From IMG/VR virus record IMGVR_UViG_3300027759_000043: 64,000 bases of DNA, one strand, 5' to 3'. This DNA comes from a virus. Its lineage: Duplodnaviria > Caudoviricetes. Below, one piece after another: positions 23,166-32,367 of this stretch. The position numbers were made by a program, and so were the translations under genes. Every line of letters begins with the position of its first letter. Position 1 is the stretch's first letter. The notes under the pieces were generated by a model, which saw nothing but the letters and a program-made list of their open reading frames with translations, made no database searches and had not been told where the DNA came from.

Positions 23166-23297
23166 ATGAAACATTCTGCACACAATTCAAATTATCTACC
23201 CACACTAGGTCTAGGCACCTGTGCCGCCTTGTGGTCTACGACTGAGAACAATGGCAGTGAATCAGATGAGATCAGGGTCCGAGGAGACAGGGTATAG
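23166..23297 (+). CDS. 43-aa putative leader peptide (MKHSAHNSNYLPTLGLGTCAALWSTTENNGSESDEIRVRGDRV)
   Basis: ATG near predicted TSS; ends just before terminator; contains antiterminator-complementary CAGGGTCC. Confidence 0.5.
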   Translation: MKHSAHNSNYLPTLGLGTCAALWSTTENNGSESDEIRVRGDRV

Positions 23298-23322
23298 TTT
23301 AACAACTTACTCAAACTTCAAA

Positions 23323-23358
23323 GGACCCTGGATTAAAAACCCAGGGTTTTTTGTTTTT
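23323..23358 (+). terminator. Intrinsic terminator (possible attenuator)
   Basis: ACCCTGG/CCAGGGT stem followed by long T tract. Confidence 0.85.
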
Positions 23359-23568: not shown

Positions 23569-23789
23569 CACTATATGAGAACACATTAGGGTTACCAGAC
23601 CCGTTAGAGGCATTGGTAGAAGTGAATCGACACCGGCGGGTGTCCGCTTGCTATCAGTCATGAGGCCGGCTCTCACCGTGAGGTGATCCAGAAAAGCGGC
23701 GGATCGTCTGGCAGTAATGACCGTGGTGACTTGGCCTCGCAAGCCAAGCAGAACGAGATCCACAACGGTTCCCAAATGTTTTTTCATAT
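23569..23789 (+). ncRNA. Structured ncRNA candidate Z (~220 nt, long closing stem)
   Basis: ATATGAGAACACATTAGGG pairs with CCCAAATGTTTTTTCATAT; internal hairpins GACACC/GGTGTC, GATCC/GGATC, CTTGGC/GCCAAG. Confidence 0.65.
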
Positions 23790-23865: not shown

Positions 23866-23945
23866 TATAGAAACATATTGCCGAGGAGCGACGTCTTTAC
23901 CATGGGCTCCGACCATAACGAGAGGTAGTGTGTTTCTATATGGTA
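23861..23945 (+). ncRNA. Structured ncRNA candidate A (19-bp closing stem)
   Basis: TACCATATAGAAACATATT/AGTGTGTTTCTATATGGTA with G-U pairs; inner GGAGC/GCTCC hairpin. Confidence 0.65.
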
Positions 23946-24068
23946 ACCATATAGAAGTATTCTTGGCATAAGTCAAAGCAGGAGAAGAAGCCTAGTATCT
24001 GCAGATGCGAAAGTTTCAGTGGTGCAAATCCCCTCCTAGGCCTGCCGTCGAGAGTGCTTCTATATGGT
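23946..24068 (+). ncRNA. Structured ncRNA candidate B (19-bp closing stem, tRNA-like T-arm)
   Basis: ACCATATAGAAGTATTCTT/GAGAGTGCTTCTATATGGT; GCAGG/CCTGC; GCCTAG/CTAGGC; GGTGCAAATCC loop. Confidence 0.7.
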
Positions 24069-24070
24069 AG

Positions 24071-24225
24071 ATGTTATAGTCAAGCATCGATAAGGTATCG
24101 TGTATGGACGCATACACTATTCGGGTCACAGCGGCCGGCGACTGATCCTAATATAACTGCATTCGGCTTTTGCACTCTTAGCGGAGGACGCATAAATTGG
24201 CATTCTCGGTGCTTGACTATAATAT
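24071..24225 (+). ncRNA. Structured ncRNA candidate C (20-bp closing stem, multibranch)
   Basis: ATGTTATAGTCAAGCATCGA/TCGGTGCTTGACTATAATAT; inner GTGTATG/CATACAC, GGGTCA/TGATCC, TGCA/TGCA. Confidence 0.65.
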
Positions 24226-24302: not shown

Positions 24303-24309
24303 AGTTTTT

Positions 24310-24374
24310 GAGAGCCGCATCGCCCTGATACTTCCCTCGGTAACGAGACACTAGGTCTTGCAACAGCGGCTCTC
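24310..24374 (+). ncRNA. Small structured element D (9-bp closing stem)
   Basis: GAGAGCCGC/GCGGCTCTC; CTCG-GTAA-CGAG GNRA hairpin. Confidence 0.5.
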
Positions 24375-24392
24375 CCCTTTAAGGAGTTGACT

Positions 24393-28480: not shown

Positions 28481-28509
28481 TTGACAAACAACAACTAATC
28501 GTATATAAT
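28481..28509 (+). promoter_or_regulatory. sigma70 promoter of second tRNA block
   Basis: TTGACA-17-TATAAT. Confidence 0.8.
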
Positions 28510-28528: not shown

Positions 28529-28606
28529 GCACTGGTGGCAGAGTGGTCCAATGCATGGGATTGCAAATCCCAAAAGCCGCTGGTTCAAATCCAGCCCAGT
28601 GCTCCA
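28529..28606 (+). tRNA. tRNA-Cys(GCA)
   Basis: GCACTGG/CCAGTGC, TGGGA-TTGCAAA-TCCCA, U73, CCA. Confidence 0.95.
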
Positions 28607-28610
28607 AACG

Positions 28611-28841
28611 TTCCAGCGTCACTGGATAGTCTGACCCAGACGATGAGAAGTACAATGACATGTACGGGTGGTTCTGAAGAGGCAAATCTTCACATGGTAA
28701 CATGCGGTCCAACCTAACCGGCGTTAGCAACACGATAGCGGTCCCTGTCGGGAAGCGGGTGGAAGGAGTACAAGTTGCGGTGTGTAGTGGAAAGACTATC
28801 ACTCAATGCTCTATAATTACCGCCGGGGGACGCAGAGCATC
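28611..28841 (+). ncRNA. Structured ncRNA candidate E (~230 nt, many hairpins, possible pseudoknot)
   Basis: TCCAG/CTGGA, GTCT/AGAC, GTACA/TGTAC, TGAAGA/TCTTCA, CATG-GTAA-CATG, CTAAC/GTTAG; GTCCCT/GGGGAC crossing ATGCTCT/AGAGCAT. Confidence 0.65.
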
Positions 28842-28848
28842 TTATTAC

Positions 28849-28923
28849 CGCGGGATGGAGAAGCGGTAACTCGTCAGGCTCATAACCTGAAGATCGGCGG
28901 TTCGATTCCGTCTCCCGCAACCA
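28849..28923 (+). tRNA. tRNA-Met(CAT), initiator-like
   Basis: C1xA72 mismatch, TCAGG-CTCATAA-CCTGA, CCA. Confidence 0.92.
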
Positions 28924-30907: not shown

Positions 30908-30997
30908 GGAGACGTGGCCGAGTGGCCTATGGCACCGGATTACTAACCCGGCGAGGTAGCAATACCTCCGTGAGTTCGAATCTCACCGTCTCCGCCA
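30908..30997 (+). tRNA. tRNA-Ser body with ACT anticodon
   Basis: GGAGACG/CGTCTCC, G73, long arm GAGGTA-GCAA-TACCTC, perfect T arm; loop TTACTAA; A31-C39 mismatch. Confidence 0.85.
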
Positions 30998-31843: not shown

Positions 31844-32032
31844 ATGAGCCGGACATTGATCTGGGTTTTATCGTTTAGTGTGCTAGGGCCAGTGCCTGAA
31901 CACGGCGAACAAGCCAAGTTCAAAACTCAAGCCGAATGCGAGCAGGCCCGGGATCAAAAACGCGAAGAATTCCGATCCCAAAACAAACGGATCGTGGCGT
32001 CTTGTCATCTCAGCACAAAGGTTGACAAATAA
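31844..32032 (+). CDS. Small hypothetical (possibly secreted) protein
   Basis: Hydrophobic N-terminus, two Cys; TAAGTA upstream. Confidence 0.55.
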   Translation: MSRTLIWVLSFSVLGPVPEHGEQAKFKTQAECEQARDQKREEFRSQNKRIVASCHLSTKVDK

Positions 32033-32050
32033 TCAAAATAAATATATACT
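32022..32050 (+). promoter_or_regulatory. sigma70 promoter of tmRNA
   Basis: TTGACA(32022)-17-TATACT(32045). Confidence 0.8.
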
Positions 32051-32056
32051 GCTAGT

Positions 32057-32339
32057 TATTGCTGTATGAAGCAGATAAAAATGGATTCAAGACTCGGGGG
32101 CAGTGCCCGAATGGTCCACCAGAAGCATAATCGATTGGCTCATAGCCAGTTGAGACATAAGAAACATGATTGTGCTTCTGGTGGGCCATACACAGGATCG
32201 ATTGGGTCAGAAGTATTGAAGTGGACAGCACATCAGAGTAGATGTTAAAACTAAAAAAAAGTAAACGCAAACGACTCACAGTTCGCATTGGCCGCGTAAA
32301 GTAGCCTAGGGTAGGAAATACCTCGTAACAGAAACCACC
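32057..32339 (+). ncRNA. ssrA: Two-piece (circularly permuted) tmRNA, tag ANDSQFALAA
   Basis: Acceptor piece ends TCGGG-GGCAGTG-CCCGA-ATGGTCC-A-CCA (32121); 17-bp intervening hairpin; coding piece starts GGGCCAT (32183) giving G3-U70; tag ORF 32267-32299. Confidence 0.9.
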
Positions 32340-32367
32340 AAGCCCGCTTCGGCGGGCTTTTTCTTTT
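32340..32367 (+). terminator. Intrinsic terminator
   Basis: AAGCCCGC-TTCG-GCGGGCTT followed by T tract. Confidence 0.9.

Follow-up and report, generated by a model that had tools for sequence, protein, structure and literature searches.

Several ornate RNAs without known function are encoded between the tRNA genes of phages. manA (RF01745) is an RNA of about 200 nt with many short hairpins that lies between phage tRNA genes, as in S-CREM1, and its consensus carries GUGGU and ACCA loops, which by our numbering of the loops correspond to the L5-L7' intermolecular kiss (bioRxiv 10.64898/2026.07.01.735769). GOLLD (RF02032) and ROOL (RF03087) are ornate RNAs of phage tRNA islands, 500-800 nt in length, and like manA they share the tRNA-array setting considered here and assemble into oligomers consisting of RNA only (PMC12286853). 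The role of these three RNAs is an open problem, as they are highly structured and some of them are abundant and form cages. The species 1 and 2 RNAs of phage T4 (rnaC and rnaD, 139 and 119 nt) are stable non-coding RNAs in a phage tRNA cluster, also without known function, and the theta ribozymes are phage RNAs with two pseudoknots that lie within 5 nt of tRNA 3' ends (PMC10879173). In this study, we describe an uncatalogued RNA family with a new fold that falls within this broad, already known kind of ornate RNAs in phage tRNA arrays.

The window, a stretch of 64,000 nt from the IMG/VR virus record IMGVR_UViG_3300027759_000043, contains 11 tRNAs and a permuted tmRNA of betaproteobacterial type amid phage-type genes. 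The ATPase encoded in the window shares 51% identity with that of the Pseudomonas jumbo phage PA5oct, and genes on uncultured viral contigs (lengths up to 364 kb) reach 70-91%. From this we infer that the source is an uncultured jumbo phage, the host of which probably belongs to the Betaproteobacteria. The two-piece tmRNA (32009-32362) has a promoter-like site and a terminator of its own and gives a hint to the host. The predicted promoter at 28481-28509 heads a run of tRNA-Cys, the RNA studied here, tRNA-Met and tRNA-Thr. The features of this region, all on the plus strand, are as follows.

28481..28509, + strand: predicted sigma70-type promoter (TTGACA, 17 nt, TATAAT; 12/12 consensus match)
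28529..28606, + strand: tRNA-Cys(GCA) with encoded CCA; the next base is the RNA start
28607..28839, + strand: gene of the structured RNA, spanning 233 nt here
28607..28611, + strand: 5-nt leader; C at -3 from P2 in 240/245 and A at -4 in 222/245 homologues
28612..28626, + strand: hairpin P2, followed by a near-invariant UA at 28627-28
28629..28641, + strand: hairpin P3, stem with 35 and 27 compensatory changes
28650..28665, + strand: hairpin P4, the last base of which (C28665) co-changes with A28711 of loop 5
28666..28672, + strand: near-invariant GGGUGGU tract, identical in 243/250 homologues, partly fixed by the search patterns
28675..28704, + strand: optional two-hairpin insertion, present in 38/250 homologues
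28705..28720, + strand: hairpin P5, 13-17 compensatory changes per stem pair
28722..28738, + strand: hairpin P6 with 7-nt loop and 4-nt linker; 14/14 stem changes compensatory
28739..28835, + strand: 3' arm, comprising P7, two bulges, P8, an internal loop, P9 and a variable tip
28739-46 with 28826-35, + strand: P7, two of its pairs with 22 and 10 independent compensatory changes
28755-58 with 28820-23, + strand: P8, 13 compensatory changes
28759-64 / 28813-19, + strand: arm internal loop between P8 and P9
28765-70 with 28807-12, + strand: P9, all six pairs in 139/180 homologues, 16-25 compensatory changes at three pairs
28836..28839, + strand: single-stranded AGC(A) tail directly after the P7 closing pair, in 247/250 homologues (truncation or mis-parsing accounts for the other 3; AGC was favoured by the step that located the ends)
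28849..28923, + strand: tRNA-Met(CAT), initiator-like with a C1-A72 mismatch

Short sequence patterns retrieved more than 120 viral loci; patterns that left out the common form brought in divergent members, and 2 further members were obtained by searching related phage records, picked by their ATPase, with a model. Altogether about 250 non-redundant full-length copies of roughly 150-280 nt were collected from viral and metagenome contigs. Selection relied on one half of the RNA in some sets and on the other half in others, so that a 3'-selected set reveals conservation of the 5' half and 5'-selected sets that of the 3' half. The family model gives 183.5 bits for the copy in the window, which is itself included in the model. 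Lengths of the homologues are spread evenly over the three frames (87/70/89), and therefore the RNA is non-coding, in agreement with an earlier sequence-only reading of the locus, which saw no credible ORF. Among 50 related records 8 carry the RNA, each in one copy, including 3 of 5 near-complete ones, and it is absent under two models from two near-complete relatives with 46 and 40 tRNAs. This argues for an accessory gene, which occurs as a single copy in large, tRNA-rich uncultured phages and takes various places within their tRNA arrays. BLAST searches of GenBank phages and plasmids gave nothing beyond chance matches, and in the cultured relatives PA5oct, Phosso, Atu_ph07, SCTP-2 and XacN1 no full match but one 10-bit fragment was detected. 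In GTDB genomes, a pattern covering only the commonest subtype gave one true match. The matching contig, from a Haliscomenobacter metagenome bin (L162), encodes the RNA together with an array of tRNAs and a permuted tmRNA and is probably a misbinned phage fragment. No Rfam 15 family matched the RNA at the gathering cut-off or at E<=10, which is what the sequence-only reading had put up for checking, nor the shortest homologues at E<=1. Likewise, no description of the RNA was found in the papers searched by motif strings or keywords, a coverage that leaves out most subscription papers. A fragment of it may be among the 8,495 candidate RNA models of 29-151 nt built from IMG/VR viruses (Fremin et al. 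2023; PMC10690425).

Single-sequence folding of the stretch was no better than that of shuffled sequences (z -0.61), and a perfect 7-bp complement as described in the sequence-only reading is present in 63% of shuffles; the evidence behind that reading was thus at chance level when taken alone. In a MAFFT alignment of 55 diverse members, a model of 45 pairs is 93% paired and 32 of the pairs show a compensatory change, while none of 500 shuffles reached this level and slid controls gave 37-48%. Because the model was derived from the same sequences, compensatory changes were also counted as independent events on a tree of 180 members. The covarying structure is a series of hairpins. The conserved core comprises the 5' domain, P7, P8 and the AGC tail, and its bases are conserved beyond the needs of pairing, while the stems vary freely. 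The comparative analysis identifies one real, conserved and tightly folded RNA of about 230 bases. The hairpins proposed earlier for the 5' half recur in the covariation of the homologues, and so does, more generally, the notion of a structured, multiply knotted non-coding RNA. No support was obtained for a helix closing the RNA end to end. Pairing of the leader (CGU) with the linker (ACG) was rejected, as leader variants are uncompensated, and inspection of variants did not fit K-turn, L1-binding site or sarcin-ricin readings of the loops.

The RNA begins directly after the CCA of tRNA-Cys, so that its 5' boundary is 28607 and not 28611 as read before. For the 5-nt leader no partner helix was supported. 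Within the 5' domain, the long-range tertiary contact between C28665 and A28711 stands out by its strong covariation: 11 of 14-15 changes fall on the same branch, with C/A alternating with A/U (CA in 172 and AU in 61 of 250 homologues). The lone crossing pair between C28731, the last base of loop 6, and G28738, the base before P7, has 8 of 9 changes compensatory; its states are UA (228), CG (16) and UG (6), with Y and R fixed here by the search patterns. The GGGUGGU tract is complementary to loop 3 as well as to loop 5. Pseudoknot 1 would join the P3 loop ACCC (28634-37) to its complement at 28666-69, and here an A-U pair is replaced by G-C in 4 sequences (2 tree events). The P5 loop ACC (28712-14) is complementary to GGU at 28670-72, giving a proposed pseudoknot 2 in a register that is not fixed; since its pairs are nearly invariant, covariation does not prove it. 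In the tract, the sole co-change, seen in 4 sequences and amounting to 2 tree events, links U4 with the A in each of the two loops. Targeted scans in which positive controls worked gave no variants at G3 and G5 of the tract or at the G of loop 6. Two GGU/ACC pseudoknots in candidate registers are likely on weak covariation, and loop 6 may form a GC/GC pair with the tail. The GGTGG/CCAACC helix that had been proposed to close two hairpins into a junction survives in part: the G-rich tract is complementary to ACC at 28712-14, but 28709-10 vary freely.

In the 3' half, the motifs GTCCCT (28741-46), GGGGAC (28826-31), ATGCTCT (28806-12) and AGAGCAT (28834-40) are present where the sequence-only reading had placed them. 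Its helix between GTCCCT and GGGGAC corresponds to P7 and holds, with the 22 and 10 compensatory changes listed above, and the one between GCGG and CCGC holds with 13/13 compensatory changes. Everything past P8 is absent from the shortest homologues, a natural form of about 150 nt, and in some members the arm shrinks to a small hairpin. In one subfamily (L282, L283, L296, L307, L361, L366 and L499) a larger conserved branched module replaces the arm tip, and such a module also occurs in L001, L022, L313 and L367.

Among the described systems, manA resembles the RNA in size and setting, and its GUGGU and ACCA loops recall the GGU and ACC of the family. However, identity with manA was rejected because neither model matches in the other direction. 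The manA model (gathering cut-off 55.2 bits) matched none of five phage records with the studied RNA at E<=10 and gave no match in the window, whereas a true manA scores 96.6 with it; in the reverse test, model R1 reached at most 1.7 bits on the S-CREM1 manA locus. manA also differs in its 5'-3' closing helix, in having GUGGU as a hairpin loop and in lacking the long 3' arm and the AGC tail. GOLLD and ROOL are three to four times longer than the family (~150-280 nt), and their Rfam models gave no match over the studied RNA. Theta ribozymes are much shorter and adopt a nested HDV fold starting with a paired G1, whereas the studied RNA starts with an unpaired leader and an isolated hairpin; a nested HDV-type double pseudoknot was not found, and no HDV-type model matched. 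rnaC of T4 ends in a T-arm-like element that is lacking here, and identity with rnaC or rnaD was rejected at a best family-model score of 3 bits. RNase P RNA and T-boxes share a GGU/UGGN-like tract and, with most members of the family, a T-loop-pair-like internal loop; yet the studied RNA has no Rfam match, P4 core, specifier or antiterminator stem, and the loop is dispensable. The family thus adds an unrelated fold to these RNAs. Its small size (~150 nt at the shortest), deep sampling and tertiary contacts that show up in the covariation make it readily amenable to self-cleavage assays, probing and cryo-EM.

A tRNA lies within 700 nt of 148/180 copies, always on the same strand. Upstream neighbours are 14 types of tRNA, stop codons of ORFs, other RNAs or promoters, and downstream neighbours are 13 types of tRNA, promoters or many unrelated ORFs. 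Such a shuffled context fits a free-standing gene and not a leader. In homologue L338, P2 follows a consensus -10 box by 11 nt, and this copy may therefore be transcribed from its own start. We tentatively prefer, at somewhat short of even chances, a stand-alone accessory RNA that would be cut from the tRNA precursor and act in trans, perhaps oligomerising like manA. Sequence conservation, the stems, two covarying long-range contacts, a 5' core that is conserved while the 3' arm can be trimmed, and the movable placement in tRNA arrays are established. The host-type promoter at 28481-509 would drive co-transcription of the RNA, and the ordinary tRNA processing of the host would release it, namely by 3'-trailer cutting after tRNA-Cys and RNase P cleavage at tRNA-Met, the latter presumably freeing its 3' end. 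An invariant surface of the compact folded body might then bind a host macromolecule during infection, most plausibly a part of the translation or tRNA machinery or an anti-phage RNA-binding protein. With two GGU triplets in the tract and ACC in two loops, pairing between molecules is conceivable, and it is tempting to speculate that one GGU/ACC pairing forms between molecules and leads to oligomers as in manA; given that homology to manA is not detectable, this analogy rests on a short motif and the shared setting.

The position of the 5' end has to be counted against a purely trans-acting RNA, since tight 5' spacing and a conserved leader fit a self-cleaving RNA equally well. In 86/88 non-redundant tRNA junctions the leader begins 0-3 nt and P2 5-8 nt past CCA, as compared to 279/497 tRNA-tRNA spacers in the same 5-8 nt range; the 5' end thus lies within 5 nt of a tRNA 3' end, as in theta ribozymes, and stop codons are mostly found 6-9 nt upstream of P2. 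The RNA could therefore be a new self-cleaving ribozyme that works like theta ribozymes with a different fold. By cutting within its 5' leader it would release itself and at the same time trim the 3' end of the upstream tRNA. The near-invariant C and A of the leader and the knotted, invariant core would suit this, as would the absence of the leader consensus from L338, the copy with an apparent promoter of its own. This spacing and the conserved leader keep the ribozyme under consideration as the main rival, though an unlikely one. Only a single copy is present per genome beside dozens of tRNAs, a tRNA is close upstream in just 79/180 copies, and relatives with 40-46 tRNAs do without the RNA. 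Moreover, no Rfam ribozyme model matches even the shortest homologues at E<=1, conservation extends to the AGC tail and the 3' arm, a long way from the 5' end, and in L338 the core is complete although there is apparently nothing to cut. Ribozyme classes are seldom discovered, and earlier ones came from the same type of comparative signal; a new class of large ribozymes with a previously unseen multi-pseudoknot fold that cuts its own 5' leader, or else an RNA machine binding tRNA ends, is a minority possibility. If it were true, jumbo phages would thereby process the transcripts of their tRNA arrays. A tRNA-binding RNA is an improbable further candidate, in which the second GGU would pair with the 3'-ACC of tRNA and the arm internal loop would grip the elbow as an interdigitated double T-loop. 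L15 of RNase P and the UGGN of T-boxes pair with the 3' end of tRNA, GGGUGGU is what we take to be the start of the T-box consensus, and the strands of the arm loop presumably resemble the T-loops of RNase P and the L1 stalk. U7 is changed to C in 3 sequences without compensation in either ACC loop, and both loops co-change with U4; the latter represents only 2 tree events. The interdigitated double T-loop is a described motif (PMC4919913). Two conserved five-base T-loops are not found in every member of the family: the internal loop is missing in about 14% of homologues including the shortest, a G occupies position 5 of the UGGAA-type loop in 71/246, and at least 14 lack one base in the other strand. 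A double T-loop as the core function is thus not supported.

A sponge for a small molecule, for instance a nucleotide defence signal, rather than a gene switch has little probability in our estimation. P6, the lone crossing pair and a 3-nt linker would create a tight H-type pocket with conserved loop bases and the AGC tail as its lining, a pocket that we assume to resemble compact riboswitch aptamers, but the neighbouring genes give no clue to a ligand and no Rfam aptamer matches. A cis-acting riboswitch or leader of a downstream gene is highly improbable. A ribosome-binding-like site with an ATG lies within 50 nt of 48/246 copies; however, the downstream ORFs encode many unrelated proteins, most copies precede tRNAs, other RNAs or promoters, and neither consistent downstream genes nor a conserved expression platform was seen. 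A 3' pseudoknot, as proposed in the sequence-only reading, or a switch through pairing of ATGCTCT with AGAGCAT across P7, possibly in two separate RNAs, is very improbable. The 7-bp complement is perfect in the window, and at least 5 of the 7 pairs are possible in 119/180 homologues. Yet all 7 pairs are retained in just 7/180, the middle pair in 17.5%, each pair has 0-1 compensatory changes, and 60% of cells pair, a level that 485/500 shuffles also attain. The covariation by which that reading proposed to judge its crossing helix is thus absent. Both strands are used by covarying helices, 28807-12 pairing instead with 28765-70 in the local stem P9, and the 5' strand is missing from the shortest homologues. 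A fixed 4-nt linker connects the two halves in every case, and the last loop of the 5' domain reaches into it through a covarying pair, which speaks against two RNAs. What stands is a multiply knotted RNA outside the Rfam families; the 3' knot that was named is wrong, the knots are likely to be located in the 5' half, and the suggested ribozyme or ligand-binding function is a candidate role.

Along with the stand-alone accessory RNA that we favour, several other elements were observed in the same arrays. A small ORF starting with MARITS lies downstream of homologues L267, L283, L344 and L361, and the tRNA array of another homologue also encodes a GOLLD RNA (L110:1587-2052), about 1 kb further downstream. 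In the window, ARAGORN calls a tRNA-Ser with the unusual anticodon ACT at 30908-30997. Ahead of the tRNA array, a 43-codon ORF followed by a terminator-like hairpin and a U-run (23166-23355) resembles a leader-peptide attenuator. Non-coding elements of the array include a GC-rich one of about 200 nt before tRNA-Glu (23575-23785; motif in 36 fetched loci) and two tandem long-stemmed elements that start at the CCA of tRNA-Glu (23866-24075). A conserved non-coding element without Rfam match precedes tRNA-Asp (24075-24225; motif in 37 fetched loci) and in other phages is often found just downstream of the studied RNA. Directly after tRNA-Asp lies a second small conserved RNA, also without Rfam match (24308-24378), the core motif of which occurs in 58 fetched loci, often directly upstream of the studied RNA (for example in L054, L105 and L300).
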